Origin: Escherichia phage vB_EcoM-Pr121LW | Direction: 5' to 3' (one strand) | Length of the DNA stretch: 64,000 nucleotides | Sequence record: MH752840.1 | Shown here: positions 640-64,000 of the stretch, piece after piece | Layout: the number at the start of each line of letters is the position of its first letter | Position numbering within the stretch: position 1 is the stretch's first letter | Program-made: the position numbers and the translations under genes | Notes under the pieces: model-generated | Told to the model about the DNA's origin: nothing | What the model saw: only the letters and a program-made list of their open reading frames with translations | Databases searched by the model: none

Positions 640-1064
640 TGAGCACACATCCTCGTTTAGTAGATTGGCAAGAAAGATTGTGGAAAGTGTTTGACGAAGA
701 GGCCACCATACCTTTTGAATGGGGATTCCACGATTGTTGCACCTTTGCAGCCAAGTGTGTTGATGCCCAGTACGGAACAGATTTTCTTTCTAACTTCGAA
801 GGAACGTATAAAACAGAGTTGGAAAGCAAAAGATGGTGCATGCTCCGTTTCAAAACCACACACCTGCCTACTATTTTTGATCTCTTTATGACTCGGCTGG
901 ATACTCATAAACAGGTTCAGCGTGGAGATATTGTCATTTTCGAAGGTCTGAACGGGCTCACCGCTGGTGTGTTCTGGAACAACCAGATTTGGGCGAAAGG
1001 TGATAAAGGGGTCTTTATGTTCGACATGAAAGATTCTATCGTTGTTGATGTCTGGAGGTATTAA
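639..1064 (+). CDS. tail-tip associated protein with HDCC cysteine motif (candidate phage NlpC/P60-like peptidase family)
   Basis: ORF track 627..1064; ATG 639 overlaps upstream stop (TAATG) and its stop overlaps J start; motif GFHDCCTFAAKC. Confidence 0.45.
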   Translation: MSTHPRLVDWQERLWKVFDEEATIPFEWGFHDCCTFAAKCVDAQYGTDFLSNFEGTYKTELESKRWCMLRFKTTHLPTIFDLFMTRLDTHKQVQRGDIVIFEGLNGLTAGVFWNNQIWAKGDKGVFMFDMKDSIVVDVWRY

Positions 1065-4000
1065 TGCCAATTGCAATGATTGATAACATCGTTGCTTCTG
1101 CAAGATCTTCAAGTTATGACTGGAACGCATCCAAGGCAGCTCTGGCTGACAGCCTGAACACTGTTACCACCAGAACTCTGGATAAGATTTTTGAGGGCAA
1201 CAAATCTTACAGAAGTCAGCAAGATAGACAAAAGCTTCTCAGATCTTCTGCTGCACCCTGCTCTGTAGTGTATGGGAAGACACGCACGTCTGGGCTGCTT
1301 GCGTTTTTGGAGCAGGACAGAGACAGAACCCTCCATTGTGCCATTGTTCTTGCTAATCATCCTCTGGAAGGTATAGAAGACATACTCATCGACGGTAATC
1401 CTATTTCCTCGTATGGAGATCTGGTATCGTGGGAGCTACATAACGACAGAAAAACATCTGATCCTTTCATGGGTACACACTGCCCATCGTGGTCACCAGA
1501 TATGATAGGCAGAGGTATCAGTTGGCTGCGTGCCAGCTTCAAGTTTGACCCCAGTAAGTTTCCTTTTGGGTTGCCAAACGTTACACTGGTCAAGGTTGGT
1601 AAAAAATGCTATGACCCCCGCATCAGTAAAGAGGTGTATACCAATAACGCGGCCTTGGTGATCCTGGACTATTTAAGAACGTACCTTAAATGTCCTGACG
1701 AAACCATCAACTGGGAGTCCTTTAGGGAGGCTGCCAATATATGCGACGAGGCGGTAAAAAACGCTGACGGAACCAGTGAGCGACGTTACACCATTAACGG
1801 TGAGTTTGACATGGATGAGGCCCCAGCAAGTATTATGGCAGAAATGCTGAAAGCTTGCGGTGCAGACCTTAGTTATGTTGCTGGTAAGTATGGTTTGCTG
1901 GTTGGTGCATACTATGGCCCAGCAACAATGACACTGAGTGAGGATTGTGTCTGTGGTGAGGTCAAGATCTATCCGGAAGCCTCCTTTGACAAGAGATCCA
2001 ACACAATAACTGGCAGATTCACTAGTCCGACCAAAGGGTATTCTGAAACAGATTTTCCATCAGTGTTTGTCCCAGAGTGGATAGAGAAGGATGGAGAAAG
2101 AAAGATAATTGATATAGACTATCGCTTTGTTACCAGTCCTTATCAAGCTCAGCGTGTTTCTGCAATCTTCTTAAGACGTGCTAGAGCTGGCAGGATTATT
2201 GAAGTCACCTGCAATATGCGAGGTTTTAAATTTAAACCTGGCCGTTACGTTACAATGGACCTTCCAAGTATTGGTATAGTAGGCCAAGAAATGAGGGTTC
2301 TTGAATGGGAGTTCACCAAAAAGGGCGGTGTCAAGGTAAAACTTCGTCAAGATGCTAAAGAGTGGAATGATGCCACAGGGCAACTTCCGGATTCTGGTGA
2401 TGTAGATATTCCGATATCTCCATCTGGTGTAGCTCAACCGCAAAACTTCAGATATTCCGTTCTCCAAGCCGGGGAAGTAACTCACGGTGTTTTGGCTTGG
2501 GACAACGTTGGAACTTACGCTCAAAATATTGTGCAGGTAAGAAAGAACGGAGAGATTGTTTGGACAGCACAGACAGTTGAGCAGTTTGTCCGAGTAGAAG
2601 GCTTGACCAAAGGATCATACACAGCAACCGTGGTTGCAACATCTTATAAAGGTGGTGTATCTCCAGAAGCGTACTGCGAGTTCAACATTCAGGCACCTGA
2701 AGCTCCTGTTTCTGTGGAGGTTAAGCAGGGATACTTTGCTATTACCCTGATCCCGCACAGCAGAGACTTGGCTAGTGTAAGCACCCAGTACGACTTTTGG
2801 ACATCTGGGATGACAAGATTGCCAGATACCAGTGATGTAACAGTTACTTCAAAAGCCACTCGTATGGGTGTTGGTTCAACTTGGACATCTGAAGGTCTGC
2901 AGAACGATAAGATTTATTACTGGTATATCAGGACAACAAATGCTTTTGGTTCATCTGCTTTTGTGGAGTGTGCAGCCCACTGTTACACATCCATAGAAGA
3001 TCTTATGCCACAGATTGATGCTGAGTTCAAAAAGACAGAGACTTATAAAGAGCTTACCGCCAATCTTGATAATGCAGTCAAGGAAATGGATAAAAATGTT
3101 GGTGCAGTCAATGACCGTGTTACTAGCATTTTTGAAGAGCTTGGGGATACAATAGAGGGTGTTGTCAGAGAGACGACAGAAAAATTTACAGGGGTTAATG
3201 GAGAAATTTCTGCCCTTAACAGTAAGCTGGTAGCAGCTCAGCAATCCTTTGACGATAAACTTGCAGCAGAGTCTGGTAGGCTTGGGTCACTAATCGAGAC
3301 AACAAATAGATCAACCGTTGATCTTGTTAATCGTAAAACTCAAGCATTGAGTGAGCAAATAACTGCAACTCAAGGTGCTCTGCGGGAAGAGTTGAAGAAC
3401 ACTGAGAGCAAACTTAACTCCTCTATTCAAGAAACCAACAAGGCAACAACCGATCTGCTAAATAAGACAACGGAAGCTATTAAGCAGGATCTGGTGGCAG
3501 CTACAGGGAAGATCACCAAGCTGGAAGATGATGTGCAGAAAGAGGTTGCCAATCTGCAAGCATCTATTCAAGAAACTAATAGTACAACAGTTGATCTTGT
3601 TAATAATACAGCCACAGCGATCCGTCAAGAACTTACCTCTGCAAAACAAGAAATTGTTGACGAAATGGGTAATATTGATGAGCTCAGGGCTACAGTATCT
3701 AATACCTCTAAAGCTGTAACAACACTTGAGGGTAAAATAGATGCTCAGTGGGGAGCTAAGATTCAGGTTGACAGCCATGGTAATAAATATGTGGCAGGTA
3801 TCCAGCTGGGCATGGAGGGGTCTGGAGGACAAGTTCAATCATACTTCATGGTTAGTGCAAACAACTTTGCGGTATACAACCCCGGAAATGGAACAGCAAC
3901 CCTTGCTTTCGCAATCAAGAACAACCAAGCGTTCTTGAAAGACGCTTTTATAGAGAATGGCACGATCTCCTCTGCCAAGATCGCACAAGAAATTTCGTCA

Positions 4001-4483
4001 AACAACTACGATGGCAACGGGTACCATAAATACGGTTGGTATATTAACAAGAACGGGCATGCCCAATTTATGGATGTGTGGGTGAAAGGCAACATCAACG
4101 CCAGTTCTGGTAACTTCACAGGGGCAGTTAATGCCACCAGTGGTACCTTCCGTGGAGATGTTTATGCCAATAATGGTAGCTTTAGAGGCACCATAGATGC
4201 AACCGGAGGTACATTCCGTGGTCGTGTAGAAGCTTCTGTTATCCGTGCTAACCAGTTCGAAGGTGCAATTGTTGCACACAGGACTTACGGAGATTGTGCT
4301 CCAGTGCATAACTCCCAGCAGAGGGTTTGCCGTTGGAGGTGGAGATACGTAGATAACGTTTCAGGTCAAGGTAAGAACGTAACATTCTTCTTTAAACTGA
4401 ACGGTACTCGTGCCAACTCCCAACTAAATGCGTGGATAGCTGGTCATCAACTCCTTGCTGGCAAGAAGTACGGGAACGGATAA
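1064..4483 (+). CDS. tip attachment / host specificity protein, lambda J-like central tail fibre; 3' end frameshifted by tandem duplication
   Basis: 1139 aa; FN3-like region and segment AKIQVDSHGNKYVAGIQLGMEG...FMVSANNFAVYNP recalled as resembling lambda gpJ; central coiled-coil; G-rich beta-repeat C-terminus. Confidence 0.85.
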   Translation: MPIAMIDNIVASARSSSYDWNASKAALADSLNTVTTRTLDKIFEGNKSYRSQQDRQKLLRSSAAPCSVVYGKTRTSGLLAFLEQDRDRTLHCAIVLANHPLEGIEDILIDGNPISSYGDLVSWELHNDRKTSDPFMGTHCPSWSPDMIGRGISWLRASFKFDPSKFPFGLPNVTLVKVGKKCYDPRISKEVYTNNAALVILDYLRTYLKCPDETINWESFREAANICDEAVKNADGTSERRYTINGEFDMDEAPASIMAEMLKACGADLSYVAGKYGLLVGAYYGPATMTLSEDCVCGEVKIYPEASFDKRSNTITGRFTSPTKGYSETDFPSVFVPEWIEKDGERKIIDIDYRFVTSPYQAQRVSAIFLRRARAGRIIEVTCNMRGFKFKPGRYVTMDLPSIGIVGQEMRVLEWEFTKKGGVKVKLRQDAKEWNDATGQLPDSGDVDIPISPSGVAQPQNFRYSVLQAGEVTHGVLAWDNVGTYAQNIVQVRKNGEIVWTAQTVEQFVRVEGLTKGSYTATVVATSYKGGVSPEAYCEFNIQAPEAPVSVEVKQGYFAITLIPHSRDLASVSTQYDFWTSGMTRLPDTSDVTVTSKATRMGVGSTWTSEGLQNDKIYYWYIRTTNAFGSSAFVECAAHCYTSIEDLMPQIDAEFKKTETYKELTANLDNAVKEMDKNVGAVNDRVTSIFEELGDTIEGVVRETTEKFTGVNGEISALNSKLVAAQQSFDDKLAAESGRLGSLIETTNRSTVDLVNRKTQALSEQITATQGALREELKNTESKLNSSIQETNKATTDLLNKTTEAIKQDLVAATGKITKLEDDVQKEVANLQASIQETNSTTVDLVNNTATAIRQELTSAKQEIVDEMGNIDELRATVSNTSKAVTTLEGKIDAQWGAKIQVDSHGNKYVAGIQLGMEGSGGQVQSYFMVSANNFAVYNPGNGTATLAFAIKNNQAFLKDAFIENGTISSAKIAQEISSNNYDGNGYHKYGWYINKNGHAQFMDVWVKGNINASSGNFTGAVNATSGTFRGDVYANNGSFRGTIDATGGTFRGRVEASVIRANQFEGAIVAHRTYGDCAPVHNSQQRVCRWRWRYVDNVSGQGKNVTFFFKLNGTRANSQLNAWIAGHQLLAGKKYGNG

Positions 4484-4605
4484 CGTTTCAGGTCAAGGTA
4501 AGAACGTAACATTCTTCTTTAAACTGAACGGTACTCGTGCCAACTCCCAACTAAATGCGTGGATAGCTGGTCATCAACTCCTTGCTGGCAAGAAGTACGG
4601 GAACG
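4352..4605 (+). repeat. perfect tandem direct repeat, 2 x 127 bp (4352-4478 and 4479-4605)
   Basis: Both copies identical base for base on manual comparison; junction creates TAA 4481-4483 in J frame. Confidence 0.95.
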
Positions 4606-7084: not shown

Positions 7085-9156
7085 TGGCAACAGCTGTTTT
7101 TAAACCTTACCGTGATTACTCTACAATGGCTGCACGGTTTCATTACCGCACAGTTCAGGATACTGCCGTTCCTGGTAGGGATTATGATCATGTTGAGGGC
7201 GATATAACTATCCCAGTTGGGGCAACCAGTATTGAGATTCCAGTGGAAATTGTTGACAAATTACCCAACAGGTTACCAAGAAGCTTCTTTATGGAGTTTT
7301 CATCAAAATCTCAAGGGGTGATGATTGGAACACAAAGGGCGAAATGCACAATAGTTTCAGATGAGAATCTTGACAGGATATCTTGGGATACTGTCGAGGA
7401 GAGAATGTTTCACCCAAGATATTGGGTTACAACTACTCAGCAGACTGAAAGTACCTGTATTGTTGCAGATGACAACTGTTGTATTAACCGTTTAGTGTCA
7501 AGAACATATGGAGGTATGGCTGGGTGCATTTGGGAAACAGTTGACAAGTATGACCATTTCGGTATTGGGTTTGATGATCACTATGAGATGAGAAACACCA
7601 AGCTTTGGTTCAGAATGTCAATAACCAATGCCAGCAACTTCTCCACTCCTGAAAAGATGATTATGACTGTAGACCTTGTTGATGGTACAATCATCTATGT
7701 TCCTTTAGCTCAATATGCTGTCAGCATCTCAGAGGATAAGAATGTTGCAGAGATTCATATTGATTTCGAGGACTGCGTCGGGATGGATCAGAACAACAAC
7801 ATGATGGGTGTTGATCCTCGACAGGTGAGAAGAATTTTAATACCGCTTATGCCTAAAGACTGGGTAAGTAATAGCACAGACCCGAGAACGGAAAATGTAG
7901 AGTGTGAGTTGCGCCTAGATCTGCTTCAGCCAGACACGGGCTGGAAAATGATGCAACTTAACAATATTCAGGTTAAAGAGCACGACGTTGGGATCTGCAC
8001 CGCATATGACGATATGTGGAACGTATCTCCTTTAAGGGTGTTGAACAATATCAAGCGTCTGGGCTATACCGGAACCATAAACCATTATGTTGGTATGAGT
8101 CATTATTATGACTACACATGGTCAGGAACCCAATGGTCTATAAACAGAACAGGGGCGCTAAACGCTGCAGCTTATAAATGGCATGATGATTTTATGTACA
8201 ATGCCAAACGACATAACTTCGACGTTATGCAGTCTGTAAGTTTTGAGCTTTACAGCGATGCCTGCCCGTTGGAATGGACCCAAAGAGACTGGAATGATAA
8301 CTACGCTAAAACAGGATATACACCTTGTAGCTACCTCCTGTCTCCAACCATTGAAGAGGGTATGAATTTCCTTACTGCAGTATTTAAGAATTTTGCATCA
8401 GCCGCTATGAGAAACAACCTGCCAGTGATTATGCAGGTTGGTGAACCGTGGTGGTGGTACAATACCGATACTCGTAGACCTTGTATTTATGATTACCCTA
8501 CAAAACAGGCGTTTTATGATGAGACAGGCGAGTATGCCTTAGATATTGGGACTATTGACGATCCTAAAACTGGAGGTGTTTACGACAAGTATGTAGCATT
8601 TTGTCGTGGTAAGCTTGGCGCTCGTATTGCGGCTATTTCAAAGGCAATAAAGGCGCATGCTGCATCAGCTAAGATGACAGCTCTGCTGTTTTTCCCAACC
8701 ATTATGGAAACCGAACTTACGCAAAAGCTTAACCTTGCTGACCAATATAAAAAAGAAGCAGGTGCTCTTGATTTCTTCTGCACTGAGTGCTACGATTGGG
8801 TGATGCAGGGAGGTATTGAAAAGGCAAAAGAGTCTGTAAACATACCTATCGTTAAGTTAGGTTGGCAACCGTCTGAAATACAATACCTTGCAGGGTTCGT
8901 TCCTAGTAAAGAGCTTGCTCCGGTATATGGATACGACCCAACTAGGAATTACCAAGAATTTTTATGGAGATGTATTTGCGGAAACATGGCAACTATAGAG
9001 TATAGATACCCTGAGGTAAAACAGTATGTGTGGGCATACCCGCAAGTAATGTCTGACAGCATCACTGTTACCGCTAGAGATTCTACCGTGCTTCATATGG
9101 GGCAGGTTGCTCTGAAAGGGTATGTAGAAGATGTTGTCCCGCCAGACTTCTCATAA
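7084..9156 (+). CDS. tail structural protein
   Basis: 690 aa; ATG overlaps upstream stop (TAATG); tail operon context. Confidence 0.5.
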   Translation: MATAVFKPYRDYSTMAARFHYRTVQDTAVPGRDYDHVEGDITIPVGATSIEIPVEIVDKLPNRLPRSFFMEFSSKSQGVMIGTQRAKCTIVSDENLDRISWDTVEERMFHPRYWVTTTQQTESTCIVADDNCCINRLVSRTYGGMAGCIWETVDKYDHFGIGFDDHYEMRNTKLWFRMSITNASNFSTPEKMIMTVDLVDGTIIYVPLAQYAVSISEDKNVAEIHIDFEDCVGMDQNNNMMGVDPRQVRRILIPLMPKDWVSNSTDPRTENVECELRLDLLQPDTGWKMMQLNNIQVKEHDVGICTAYDDMWNVSPLRVLNNIKRLGYTGTINHYVGMSHYYDYTWSGTQWSINRTGALNAAAYKWHDDFMYNAKRHNFDVMQSVSFELYSDACPLEWTQRDWNDNYAKTGYTPCSYLLSPTIEEGMNFLTAVFKNFASAAMRNNLPVIMQVGEPWWWYNTDTRRPCIYDYPTKQAFYDETGEYALDIGTIDDPKTGGVYDKYVAFCRGKLGARIAAISKAIKAHAASAKMTALLFFPTIMETELTQKLNLADQYKKEAGALDFFCTECYDWVMQGGIEKAKESVNIPIVKLGWQPSEIQYLAGFVPSKELAPVYGYDPTRNYQEFLWRCICGNMATIEYRYPEVKQYVWAYPQVMSDSITVTARDSTVLHMGQVALKGYVEDVVPPDFS

Positions 9157-51311: not shown

Positions 51312-51355
51312 TATTTTAAGTTATCAGGTTCCCAGAGATCAGGAGGATTTCTAAA

Positions 51356-51568
51356 ATGGATTTCCTCCTTTTGATATTTCACCGGACCAGATATTTTAAA
51401 ATTCTTAGAAAATCAGAAAATGGATCGAAAACTAAAATGGATTTTTTCAACACAGGCGCGGAAAATTGTGCCAATCTATCTAGCCGTTTGCACCATATTC
51501 GAAATCACCGTTCCAGATTTCCCACACATACACACCTCCCCGCCATACCTTTCTCCACTCACTCTTAG
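51356..51568 (+). CDS. basic His/Arg-rich hypothetical protein
   Basis: 70 aa; strong AGGAGG SD 7 nt upstream; sits inside repeat-rich region so coding status uncertain. Confidence 0.35.
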   Translation: MDFLLLIFHRTRYFKILRKSENGSKTKMDFFNTGAENCANLSSRLHHIRNHRSRFPTHTHLPAIPFSTHS

Positions 51569-51620
51569 TGATTTATGACGGAAAACCCATCACTATCAGT
51601 GAGTTGCGGTACAATTTTTC

Positions 51621-51800
51621 CAGTACTCGATCTACTTTTCATTTCATGGTTTGGATTTTCTGAAAATTTTTCTCGATAAATTTCTCAGTACTCGATCTGT
51701 TTTTCGTTTTCTGAATCGGATTTTCTGGAAATCGTTCCGGCTCTCGACCTGAAATTTTTGGGGACGAAATCGATTTTTCGTTTTCAGAAATGGATTTTTA
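51621..51800. repeat. AT-rich direct repeats with ~65-bp period (two good copies plus a degenerate third)
   Basis: CAGTACTCGATCT at 51621 and 51686; shared TTTTCnTTTTC…GGATTTTCTGRAAA tails. Confidence 0.7.
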
Positions 51801-51912
51801 AAATTTCTATATGGGAATATTTTATGGGGTACTGTTTTATAGGAAATTGTTACGGATGGTAATTAGCATGCTAATTAAATTTATTAAATGCGAGGAGTTC
51901 TCATTTAGAATT

Positions 51913-51931
51913 TTGAATGATAATCATTCTC
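51913..51931. promoter_or_regulatory. Fur-box-like palindrome (15/19 to GATAATGATAATCATTATC)
   Basis: ttgAATGATAATCATTcTC; core AATGATAATCATT is a perfect 6-1-6 palindrome. Confidence 0.35.
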
Positions 51932-51946
51932 GTTTGCAGAATAACG

Positions 51947-51969
51947 GGCAGGCCCGGTGATTGTCTCCC
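51947..51969 (+). repeat. GC-rich 23-bp element GGCAGGCCCGGTGATTGTCTCCC (copy A)
   Basis: Inverted copy at 61604-61626 (22/23 identical); variant at 52088-52121. Confidence 0.8.
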
Positions 51970-52048
51970 GGCCCCTACTGCCCCGGCTTGCTATTATAGT
52001 AACACACAGGACAAAGAAAGCAAGAAGTTTTTGCATAAATTTTTAGAC

Positions 52049-52067
52049 GATAATGATAATCGTTCTC
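52049..52067. promoter_or_regulatory. Fur-box-like site (17/19 to GATAATGATAATCATTATC)
   Basis: GATAATGATAATCgTTcTC; followed 20 nt later by GC element variant, repeating the arrangement at 51913-51969. Confidence 0.4.
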
Positions 52068-52087
52068 ATTTCATGCAGCGCCCATCC

Positions 52088-52121
52088 CCGGTGGTTGTCT
52101 CCCCCGTCACCGGTGCCTGCC
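52088..52121. repeat. variant GC element CCGGTGGTTGTCTCCC…CACCGGTGCCTGCC (copy B)
   Basis: Carries both halves of the 23-bp element in rearranged, partly inverted form. Confidence 0.6.
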
Positions 52122-52146
52122 GTCCTTTCGATAGGTATATTGTGCC

Positions 52147-52285
52147 ACCTGGCGGGGCCGCTGTCAACACTTTTCAAAAAATTTTTCTAACCTGATGCGC
52201 TAACCGCTGCAACCTGGCGGGGCCAGCCTGGCAGTACCTAACTGACCAGGTAGGAGAGAATGAAGGCTTGTAAACCTGGTGGGCC
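52147..52285 (+). repeat. three direct copies of ACCTGG(C/T)GGGCC at 62-65 bp spacing
   Basis: Copies at 52147, 52212 and 52274; related copies at 52451 and 59321. Confidence 0.6.
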
Positions 52286-53735: not shown

Positions 53736-53783
53736 GTTTATTTTTAGATGGCCTTGACTCCAGGGCCATCAATAAAGTAAACT
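53736..53783 (+). repeat. 45-bp repeated element copy 1: promoter with -35 TTGACT in loop of GATGGCC/GGCCATC inverted repeat
   Basis: TTTATTTTTAGATGGCCTTGACTCCAGGGCCATCAATAAAGTAAA identical at 54357 and 58075; -35 at 53754-53759, -10 TAAACT at 53778-53783. Confidence 0.75.
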
Positions 53784-53814
53784 AACCACAGTTGAGCGGA
53801 AAGGGGGCTTAAAG

Positions 53815-54354: not shown

Positions 54355-54402
54355 ATTTATTTTTAGATGGCCTTGACTCCAGGGCCATCAATAAAGTAAA
54401 CT
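54355..54402 (+). repeat. 45-bp repeated element copy 2 (promoter in inverted repeat)
   Basis: -35 TTGACT 54373-54378 between GATGGCC 54366-54372 and GGCCATC 54383-54389; -10 TAAACT 54397-54402. Confidence 0.75.
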
Positions 54403-54443
54403 TTACACTGTTAACACTGAACTAATACAGAGGAGTTAAAACC

Positions 54444-54689: not shown

Positions 54690-54737
54690 TTATTTTTTCG
54701 GTGGTCCTTGCTGCAGGGCCATCTATAAAGATAATTT
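54690..54737 (+). repeat. diverged copy of the 45-bp element with CTTGCT-17-GATAAT
   Basis: TTATTTTTTCGGTGGTCCTTGCTGCAGGGCCATCTATAAAGATAATTT; partial inverted repeat retained. Confidence 0.5.
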
Positions 54738-54764
54738 ACTAACACCATGAAAGGAGAAAGTAAC

Positions 54765-62475: not shown

Positions 62476-62895
62476 ATGAACATCAAATCTAATAATCCGG
62501 CATATAGCTTTGATAACGCTTTTTGTCACGGTCCGGCGGCGAAAGGATTCGAAATCGATGGTAAACTAATTATTGTCAATGTTGACGGGGAAGAGGTTGC
62601 AGTATATCCGGTGGCAGACGTAAAAAGCCGTTTGCAATGCCGCATGGATGTTACCGCCTATCAGCTTGATCCGGTCCGCATAGTTGCCCTGGTCCTGGAA
62701 GAAGAAATTAAAGCCATGCACCATAGCAACAGGTTTATTGGTGACGCACAGGATAATATGAAGGTATGCCGCCATAAAGTTAATGAAGTGCTTAAAGAAT
62801 ATGGCTTTAAAGATCTGATGATCAAACGTGAGGAAAAATTCCGCTACCGTAACGACCTGGCAAATCGAATCTATGAAATATACGAATCATTATAA
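62476..62895 (+). CDS. hypothetical protein
   Basis: 139 aa; AAGAGG SD. Confidence 0.55.
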   Translation: MNIKSNNPAYSFDNAFCHGPAAKGFEIDGKLIIVNVDGEEVAVYPVADVKSRLQCRMDVTAYQLDPVRIVALVLEEEIKAMHHSNRFIGDAQDNMKVCRHKVNEVLKEYGFKDLMIKREEKFRYRNDLANRIYEIYESL

Positions 62896-62913: not shown

Positions 62914-62942
62914 AGGGGCTTTAAAAGGCCCCTTTCTTTTTG
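62914..62942 (+). terminator. rho-independent terminator AGGGGC…GCCCCT plus T-run
   Basis: 6-bp stem followed by TTCTTTTTG; last terminator before noncoding end region. Confidence 0.7.
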
Positions 62943-63549
62943 TCTGTATTTCTCCTACCACAAACGGCCCCACCTGGCAAGTGGAATAATTGACTAGCCA
63001 TCAATCCCACACACTGTACAAATATACATGTAAAATAGCTATTGCATAATCTTTCATTGTGTGGTAGCAGGGCCATTTTTACACGTTTTTCCTTCCAAAA
63101 TTGCACGTAATGCAGCTATTGCACAAAATTTAACCTGATGCATATCTTCAGTGTCCTGTCAACAACTAAAAATCTTTATAAGTCATACACTTACACAACC
63201 ACAAAAGCGTGTTCTACGTGAAAAATCGGGTATAACTATAGCCACTAAATTCCAGAATTCACGTAGCGTCACCATTCTATAGTCTGCTAAGCATTTATTC
63301 CAACCATAGAATAACGGAATAGTCAATACCTGCATAAAATAATTATTCGTTTAAACTGCATAACATAAATCAGCCAGGGTGTCAACATTTTTCGTAAACA
63401 GTCAGAAATTGTCACGGTTAGTTATCATAAACAGAGAAATATTTAGTTGTCTAATGTTTACTGTACATTACTATATTGACTGGAATCATTAGATGACTAA
63501 GAGAAAGATAAGAAATAATTAACAATACAACTATTTTATCCGTAACAAT

Positions 63550-63743
63550 AAGGCAACTATGCAAACGAATGGCATGGCGCGACGGAGTCGCGACATAATA
63601 TAAAAGCAGTAACCATCACCCCCGTGATAGTTTGTCTGCAAACTATTAATCAGATCATAGTTGCCTTGTATTTAGTTAATCATGACATAACAAGCAAGGC
63701 AACTATAGATCTGCTAATAGTTGCCCTGCTTTTATATTATGTC
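63550..63743. repeat. palindrome/iteron cluster: four copies of AAGGCAACTAT in alternating orientation, 18-bp inverted repeat pair, CGCGAC-GGA-GTCGCG palindrome
   Basis: Sites at 63550, 63657(rc), 63696, 63717(rc); GACATAATATAAAAGCAG at 63592-63609 and its reverse complement at 63726-63743. Confidence 0.8.
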
Positions 63744-63836
63744 ATATATTATTAACCTGTTAATTGTCAGCTTATTGGCTGTTAGCTTGTCAATTGTTAA
63801 CTTGCTAATTGTTTTCATGCAAACGAATGTCATGGC
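63559..63836. repeat. 20-bp direct repeat ATGCAAACGAATG(G/T)CATGGC (two copies)
   Basis: Copies at 63559-63578 and 63817-63836. Confidence 0.8.
63757..63815. repeat. short tandem AT-rich repeats (TTAATTGTCAGC / TTGTCAATTGTTAAC / TTGCTAATTGTT)
   Basis: Four imperfect 12-15 bp units in tandem. Confidence 0.6.
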
Positions 63837-63849
63837 TTATCATCTTTGT

Positions 63850-63895
63850 GTAAACTGTCAAGGTGTAAACTATCCAGGCGTAAACAGTCTATGCA
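63850..63895. repeat. three tandem GTAAAC-containing ~15-bp units
   Basis: GTAAACTGTCAAGG / GTAAACTATCCAGG / GTAAACAGTCTATGCAGG. Confidence 0.6.
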
Positions 63896-64000
63896 GGAAC
63901 AATCTATACGTGAACAGTGAAACATGAAATAATAACGATTGTTATTGTGTCATATTGTGCTGCAGTGTGTTATGTTGTGCCCAGTGTGTCCAGTATGTCA

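Follow-up and report, generated by a model that had tools for sequence, protein, structure and literature searches.

A palindromic, repeat-rich noncoding region beside the terminal repeat of a Vequintavirus genome and its probable role in DNA packaging

Concatemers of T7-type phages, whose genomes end in exact, short direct terminal repeats (DTRs), hold one repeat copy per junction, and the repeat is duplicated during cleavage (PMC4281155, PMC4925675); a hairpin intermediate has been reported for T7 (Chung and Hinkle, 1990; Chung, Nardone and Hinkle, 1990, as cited in PMC4281155 and PMC4925675). Junction recognition, two-site cutting and repeat duplication in phages with exact short repeats are still poorly understood (PMC13595956). 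Within the genus Vequintavirus, the terminal repeats of Gotham are 459 bp long and its packaging begins at a single specific point, in explicit contrast to permuted phages examined in that study (PMC7471380), and EdH4 and HdK5 have 458-bp redundancies (PMC6563267). In the same subfamily, Vequintavirinae, the Klebsiella phage KPP-1 (Mydovirus) has a 514-bp DTR with twofold coverage and was classed as T7-type by PhageTerm (PMC9862379). The subject of this study is a 64,000-nt stretch of Escherichia phage vB_EcoM-Pr121LW (record MH752840.1), hereafter the window, and specifically its last ~1 kb (positions 62946-64000). An initial annotation, made from the sequence alone, had described this part as a noncoding region dense in palindromes and iteron-like repeats, and had suggested a packaging (pac/cos) site, a partition-like site or a second origin. 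The region is shown here, by sequence comparison, to lie immediately inside the ~459-bp DTR of a Vequintavirus genome, and its palindrome and short repeat arrays are probably signals for DNA cutting and packaging.

The region at the terminal repeat boundary

The last 1.6 kb of the window matched 150 phage records at 80-99% identity, nearly all of them Escherichia phages of the genus Vequintavirus, identifying the window as part of an rV5-like myovirus genome of ~136 kb. The ~1-kb region alone matched 119 records at 85-94%, almost none of which annotates a gene there. The window aligned to the reverse complement of the left end of Gotham, and its last bases reached the base just outside the 459-bp repeat, which the Gotham record annotates as a repeat_region at 1-459 with an identical second copy at the right end. 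In a multiple alignment, window base 64000 was the last base before the DTR (...TGTCA|GACAAG...) in 19 of 19 relatives; the TGTCA was followed by GACAAGTTTTTCTCC..., the first bases of the repeat, in every relative aligned, giving the junction TGTCA|GACAAGTTTTT.... Mean pairwise identity among the relatives was 0.59-0.68 over the 240 nt preceding this junction but 0.96 over the next 60 nt. The initial annotation had proposed checking whether the window edge coincides with a genome terminus or terminal repeat; it coincides to the base with the inner DTR boundary mapped in relatives, and the link of the region to genome ends and packaging is thus well supported.

Because a randomly placed window would end on base 64000 with a chance of only ~1/137,000, the source record is evidently arranged by physical ends. 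The ECP2303 record is laid out in the same way, with one repeat copy at one end and the region at the other, and the records of Gotham, EdH4, HdK5, ECP2309 and YN3 share a common start at the outer DTR base and carry two copies each. Fixed ends with an identical direct repeat of fixed length were therefore found in close relatives. Of the packaging site first proposed, the connection with genome ends stands, but neither specific label does: the relatives carry 458-459-bp direct repeats rather than the cohesive ends of a cos site (PMC7471380, PMC6563267), and at least five records have fixed, identical ends, which do not fit a headful pac site.

In permuted records, the region forms the left part of a gene-free gap of ~2.5 kb flanked by two convergent gene blocks, a gap already drawn as a "non-coding" box on the rV5 map (PMC3606486). 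In published vequintaviruses, the homologous locus has the terminal repeat on one side and, on the other, the final gene of the unit that ends at rV5 gene 164. The DTR has asymmetric flanks, as seen in the gap of AlexBoehm. When the complete 2.5-kb gap of a relative was scanned, its only strong hairpin was the composite palindrome described below, with none in the repeat or the other flank, so that a hairpin-forming inverted repeat is present near the DTR on one side only. Short tandem units flank the repeat on both sides, with periods of 15, 15 and 9-10 nt in the window and five CTCTTCAGG units on the other flank of relatives. In AlexBoehm (8042-9020) that other flank has its own repeats, comprising the five CTCTTCAGG units and two CGGCGGGG(A/C)GGGG motifs, and no palindrome.

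Palindrome, repeats and conservation

The repeat density that had drawn attention to the region is well above chance. It holds 17 shared inverted 10-mers, compared with 3.6 +/- 2.5 in dinucleotide shuffles, none of 500 of which reached 17, and 9 direct 10-mers compared with 1.4 +/- 1.5; its inverted-repeat load ranks first among 120 window tiles (tile median, 1). When one mismatch is allowed, AAGGCAACTAT matches nine times in the 64 kb, where 1.43 +/- 1.25 matches were expected and none of 100 shuffles reached that number; three exact copies (63550 (+), 63657 (-) and 63696 (+)) plus one with a single mismatch (63717 (-)) fall within 180 bp. A fifth copy, AGGGCAACTAT, at 62680-62690 on the minus strand, lies inside the gene at 62476-62895; it is the same one-mismatch variant as that at 63717 and may be there by chance.

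All elements of the initial annotation, including the terminator and the CGCGAC-GGA-GTCGCG palindrome, were recovered at the positions it gave, and some of them required reinterpretation. The 20-bp direct repeat (63559 / 63817) is present, its copies 95% identical and spaced 258 nt apart, as are the tandem GTAAAC units, with a period of 15 at 63848-63918. The array of tandem TTRNTAATTGTY units also exists but is looser than described, with only two exact copies. The four sites in alternating orientation and the 18-bp inverted repeat had been listed as separate elements; their positions are correct, but the 18-bp pair and three of the four AAGGCAACTAT sites belong to a single composite palindrome (Table 1). 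The fourth AAGGCAACTAT site and the CGCGAC palindrome lie just to its left, and the two 20-nt repeats bracket the whole module.

The fold of the composite palindrome (63592-63743) had a predicted energy of -48.5 kcal/mol (z = -10.06), and 0 of 200 shuffles folded as well. This block was present in 117 of the 119 matching records, and across the 19 relatives the mean identity of 63541-63745 was 0.96, compared with 0.944-0.963 for three flanking genes. The CGCGAC palindrome was invariant in every fetched relative except FV3, where it is deleted. The consensus fold has 58 pairs that are almost invariant over 16 distinct sequences, with a double change in only one; since the stems are near-invariant within the genus, the argument for pairing rests on where the variation falls and on a diverged relative. 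Variable columns made up 9 of 116 paired positions versus 13 of 40 unpaired ones (Fisher p = 3e-4), and rV5 and LL12 have an insertion of ~32 bp in the apex region of the palindrome.

The diverged relative was recovered by scanning IMG/VR with the last gene of the window, which returned three loci only: one typical, one diverged (L010) and one uninformative (L011). L010 has the last gene in common with the window, and its gap aligns only in patches at 73-77% identity. A direct repeat pair of ~24 nt brackets its palindrome, the copies 243 nt apart versus 258 nt in the window, and a perfect 17-nt inverted pair, GACATAATAACGCTGAG, differs on both arms from the window sequence at 7 or more of 18 positions and is still 100% complementary. 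A CCCC-loop hairpin with compensatory stem changes and GCAACnATAAC sites are likewise present, the CGCGAC palindrome is degraded, and units of ~10 nt (AGTATGCCTAA) abut the predicted DTR start. The L010 palindrome has a z of -8.1. Together with the depletion of variation at paired positions, the L010 arms suggest that pairing in the palindrome is under selection.

The absence of a credible open reading frame (ORF), as first annotated, was borne out. Substitutions across the 19 relatives showed no codon periodicity in 62950-63745 (p = 0.2-1.0), whereas three neighbouring genes used as controls had a strong third-position excess (p = 3e-7 to 5e-14); hidden small genes were ruled out on these grounds. 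Most GenBank records have no annotation in the region. A few annotate small "hypothetical protein" ORFs in the gap, such as a 61-aa minus-strand ORF at window 62921-63106 (ECP2303 3491-3676), and these are probably spurious given the lack of codon periodicity. The same stretch, 62950-63745, is gap-free in the 19 relatives, with identities of 0.85-0.99 per 20 nt, and is as conserved as coding DNA. Its left part (62950-63540) gave no strong single-strand structure in the fold scan; within it, 63157-63275 is the only part of the region still alignable in L010. A promoter-like patch, TGTCAACAACTAAAAATCTTTATAAG, lies there (window 63157-63190, L010 4656-4690), directed toward the terminal repeat.

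To the right of the palindrome, conservation falls abruptly: mean identity across 63746-64000 was 0.55 with 27% gaps, and the number of units changes between phages. The array at 63748-63815 (conservation 0.27-0.77, gaps 5-42%) is absent in V18 and in Gotham-type relatives, and the GTRAAC units vary from 0 to 8 copies among relatives. The ...RTGTSNCA array adjoining the DTR is distinguished by its final unit, which always ends in TGTCA at junction base 64000.

Table 1. Coordinates of features in and beside the region (positions of the window)
Feature	Position	Strand	Remarks
Intrinsic terminator	62914-62942	+	8-bp stem with 5 G-C pairs, 4-nt loop, T tract; stem 62914-62933
Conserved noncoding stretch	62950-63540	.	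mean identity 0.911 to 19 relatives, no gaps
Inverted repeats	63007-63064 and 63443-63500		
36-nt direct repeat, GCTATTGCA-type	63019-63054 / 63096-63131		
First AAGGCAACTAT site	63550-63560	+	overlaps 20-nt repeat copy 1; conservation 0.93-0.99 over 63550-63578
20-nt direct repeat copy 1, ATGCAAACGAATGGCATGGC	63559-63578	+	
Perfect CGCGAC-GGA-GTCGCG palindrome	63578-63592	.	unique in 64 kb, 0.02 expected
Composite nested palindrome, ~150 bp	63592-63743	.	one nested hairpin in single-stranded DNA fold
Outer perfect 18-nt arms	63592-63609 / 63726-63743		
Small hairpin, CCCC loop	63611-63632		
Inner arms	~63636-63668 / 63695-63730		carry AAGGCAACTAT at 63657 (-), 63696 (+) and 63717 (-)
Array of ~15-nt units, TTAAYNTGYTAATTG-type (also TTAATTGT-type)	63748-63815	+	period 15 at 63780-63813
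20-nt direct repeat copy 2, ATGCAAACGAATGTCATGGC	63817-63836	+	conserved island, 0.88, within variable part
15-nt GTRAAC units, ~5	63848-63918	+	variable array
9-10-nt ...RTGTSNCA units, ~six	63940-64000	+	periods 20 and 9 at 63946-63999

The terminator closes the last plus-strand operon, after a 139-aa gene at 62476-62895, and the EdH4, HdK5 and Gotham records annotate a terminator at the equivalent place. The immediate neighbours of the region are small hypothetical genes; further upstream, the window encodes tail and baseplate proteins as well as T7-like replication functions, among them a PIF1 helicase and a DnaB/gp4-type helicase; the rV5-like replication set also has a Pol A polymerase (PMC3606486). 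No tRNAs were found in the window. The G+C content of the region is 0.349-0.356 (~35%), versus ~0.44 for the genome.

Several observations concern other parts of the window or of the records compared. The uninformative IMG/VR locus, L011 (153 kb), encodes at 4001-4417 the 139-aa protein of window 62476-62895 with 91% amino-acid identity, and its flanks have no detectable DNA similarity to the window, which suggests that this gene moved between otherwise unrelated phages. About 18 "Campylobacter phage" records (MG0656xx, host C. jejuni) closely match E. coli vequintaviruses, those listed being 87-100% identical, with the match extending across both the region and the DTR; mislabelling or contamination is the probable explanation. 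The 3' end of a 1139-aa ORF (1064..4483) falls within a perfect tandem duplication of 127 bp at 4352-4605 (2.0 copies, 100% match), which either arose very recently or is an artefact of assembly. GC and AT skew both dip locally at an ORF-poor, T-rich stretch (~51350-52250), which has three tandem-like units of 65-74 nt (51613-51798) and a duplicated TGCCACCTGGCGGGGCC (52143 / 52208) and may be another regulatory or origin-like region. Finally, small genes are separated at three places (53737-53793, 54356-54412 and 54690-54746) by copies of a 57-nt intergenic repeat; its GATGGCC...GGCCATC stem-loop overlaps a promoter-like pair of the TTGACT / TAAAGT type, resembling promoter-stem-loop cassettes.

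Candidate functions of the region

We infer, with moderate confidence, that the region acts in cis in concatemer-junction processing and packaging in a phage of the T7 type, that is, one with an exact short DTR. An invariant cut-site unit following phased units of ~10 bp, a one-sided palindrome apparently under selection and a layout found in three lineages all fit a region for recognition of the concatemer junction. In a head-to-tail concatemer, the cut that makes the genome end (5'-GACAAG...) must fall at 64000|64001, and the phased 9-10-nt ...TGTGTCA units beside it would position the terminase. The palindrome would act as an extruded hairpin or cruciform, or else as a symmetric platform for protein binding, and by analogy with the T7 hairpin intermediate would help either in recognising the junction or in duplicating the DTR by DNA synthesis; it would improve this process without being essential. 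A more specific proposal is offered only tentatively: that the one-sided palindrome, the 20-nt repeats, the GGCAACTAT sites and the phased TGTGTCA units together constitute the actual cis-acting signals that specify exact-DTR packaging in a lineage of large myoviruses, with the hairpin or cruciform loading the terminase or priming DTR duplication.

Several points weigh against this assignment. FV3 (NC_019517, 1563-2382) has a clean 258-bp deletion that leaves one hybrid 20-nt copy and removes everything between the two copies, so that neither palindrome nor the TTAATTGT array is left; the palindrome block is present in SYGMH1, which belongs to the same species. In V18, the TGTGTCA array is kept, and the second 20-nt copy and the GTAAAC and TTAATTGT arrays are missing. 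These parts are thus dispensable for viability and plaque formation, and the palindrome is not essential, unless the FV3 deletion is artefactual; a cloning or assembly artefact is possible, given the instability in clones of palindromes with direct repeats on either side. Within the genus, covariation is uninformative, as near-invariant stems make hairpin formation inseparable from plain sequence conservation, and the argument from covariation rests mainly on one diverged contig, L010, in which the DTR boundary is a predicted one. Termini have been mapped in relatives, not in this phage, and for BpE1AUH, a vequintavirus from a phage cocktail, a PhageTerm "headful" call was published (PMC13211470). 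Ten large ORFs of the window were scanned without a match to any terminase family; the terminase gene apparently lies beyond the window. Nor does a packaging model account for the conserved 600 bp at 62950-63540.

It is unlikely that the region is instead a replication origin or priming site, where GGCAACTAT iterons, palindromes and A+T-rich DNA would bind a phage initiator, or the hairpin would load a gp4-like primase-helicase, and proximity to the DTR would be secondary. T7 has secondary origins near its ends, and plasmid packaging reportedly needed an origin in the work of Chung and Hinkle (1990). The significant density of repeats and palindromes in the region is what an origin would have, but its "iterons" are mostly the mirror-image arms of the palindrome and not a direct-repeat array, and the region contains no DnaA boxes or IHF sites. 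The low G+C content and the selection inferred on palindrome pairing would also suit an origin; yet FV3 is viable without the palindrome block. The T7-like replication genes are likewise in keeping with this explanation (PMC3606486), but no recognisable initiator gene is adjacent, the neighbours being small hypothetical genes. The authors of the rV5 study placed a skew change at nt 104425-105475, an interval that overlaps the DTR position mapped in rV5, but that change is explained by convergent transcription (PMC3606486).

Quite unlikely, too, is a passive spacer, in which a transcription-termination buffer between convergent operons at the genome ends would have gathered slippage minisatellites and a self-maintaining palindrome, with no dedicated role in packaging or replication. 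Gene blocks do converge on the gap (PMC3606486), there are a terminator at 62914-62942 and a terminator-like minus-strand hairpin at 63611-63632, array copy number varies freely, and the FV3 and V18 deletions are tolerated. A spacer would not, however, be expected to keep an 800-bp left part gap-free at coding-level conservation in 19 relatives, a palindrome in nearly all records, co-varying arms in L010 and an invariant TGTCA unit at the junction, or to recur as a layout with different sequence in another genus.

A noncoding RNA locus or promoter cluster, with one or more small RNAs, the hairpin as an RNA structure, or promoters directed toward the DTR, is improbable. The sequence is strongly conserved and noncoding, its hairpin is very stable, and the promoter-like patch at 63157-63190 is kept even in L010; nevertheless, no Rfam 15 family came near its gathering score (best 27.9 bits versus 249, then 26 versus 93 and 22.5 versus 41), the homologous gap of AlexBoehm had no Rfam match, sigma-70-like sites were not enriched in the region (12 versus 8.1 +/- 3.0 expected), and there was no structure signal outside the palindrome.

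Vequintaviruses are virulent myoviruses without a plasmid prophage stage, which counts against a partition site. A cos site, headful pac site or plasmid-type partition site is highly improbable: many symmetric short repeats do lie close together and the BpE1AUH call would favour headful packaging, but several groups have independently mapped fixed ends and direct repeats in relatives (PMC7471380, PMC6563267), the IHF site of lambda cosB has no counterpart in the region, and the supposed partition sites are arms of one palindrome. Regulation through GATC/Dam, as at the P1 pac site, was also considered and rejected, the two GATC sites counted by eye being about the number expected from base composition.

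Significance and comparison with described systems

The terminal repeat and the gene-free box of the genus are already published (PMC3606486, PMC7471380, PMC6563267), and none of the papers found in the searchable library gives an account of the composite palindrome, its bracketing repeats, the arrays, the invariant TGTCA junction or the natural deletion variants. About 120 genomes make Vequintavirus a heavily sampled genus, and its members are in wide use as candidates for phage therapy. For the proposed concatemer-junction region, base-level candidates for the cut site and its recognition elements are now at hand: the invariant TGTCA|GACAAG junction, a phased array that is always present with variable copy number, and a conserved palindrome with co-varying arms that flanks the DTR on one side only. 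FV3 and V18, as natural deletion variants, already indicate dispensable parts. In practical terms, records of the genus could start consistently at the true terminus, and the small ORF annotations in the gap are probably spurious.

Three described systems offer points of comparison. At lambda cos, cosB and cosN combine terminase small-subunit R sites in mixed orientation with an IHF site beside the nicking site. The window resembles this arrangement in having short repeats of alternating orientation within a few hundred bp of the terminase cut site, but differs in its 459-bp direct repeats, as opposed to 12-nt cohesive ends, in the lack of an IHF consensus and in that its repeats are the arms of a palindrome.

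The T7/T3 junction, with its 160-bp repeat, shares with the window phage an exact short DTR and a hairpin-capable inverted repeat on one side, and the gp4-type helicase and Pol A replication set is common to both. T7 is also reported (Dunn and Studier, 1983) to have short degenerate tandem arrays beside its terminal repeat, as the window phage does. There is no sequence similarity, however, and the window phage is a 136-kb myovirus with a gene-free zone of ~2.5 kb versus a few hundred bp, a ~150-bp composite palindrome set in direct repeats, three types of array and operons that converge on the ends.

KPP-1 differs in its repeat sequences (ATGATAAnnnnTTATCAT), in having no obvious array of the TGTGTCA type and in an opposite flank that is much shorter. 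As in the window, however, convergent gene blocks meet at its DTR, the boundary sequences are similar by eye, without formal alignment, and a nested palindrome with 21-nt perfect arms, together with four short ATGATAAnnnnTTATCAT palindromes, is located 300-650 bp away from the corresponding boundary.

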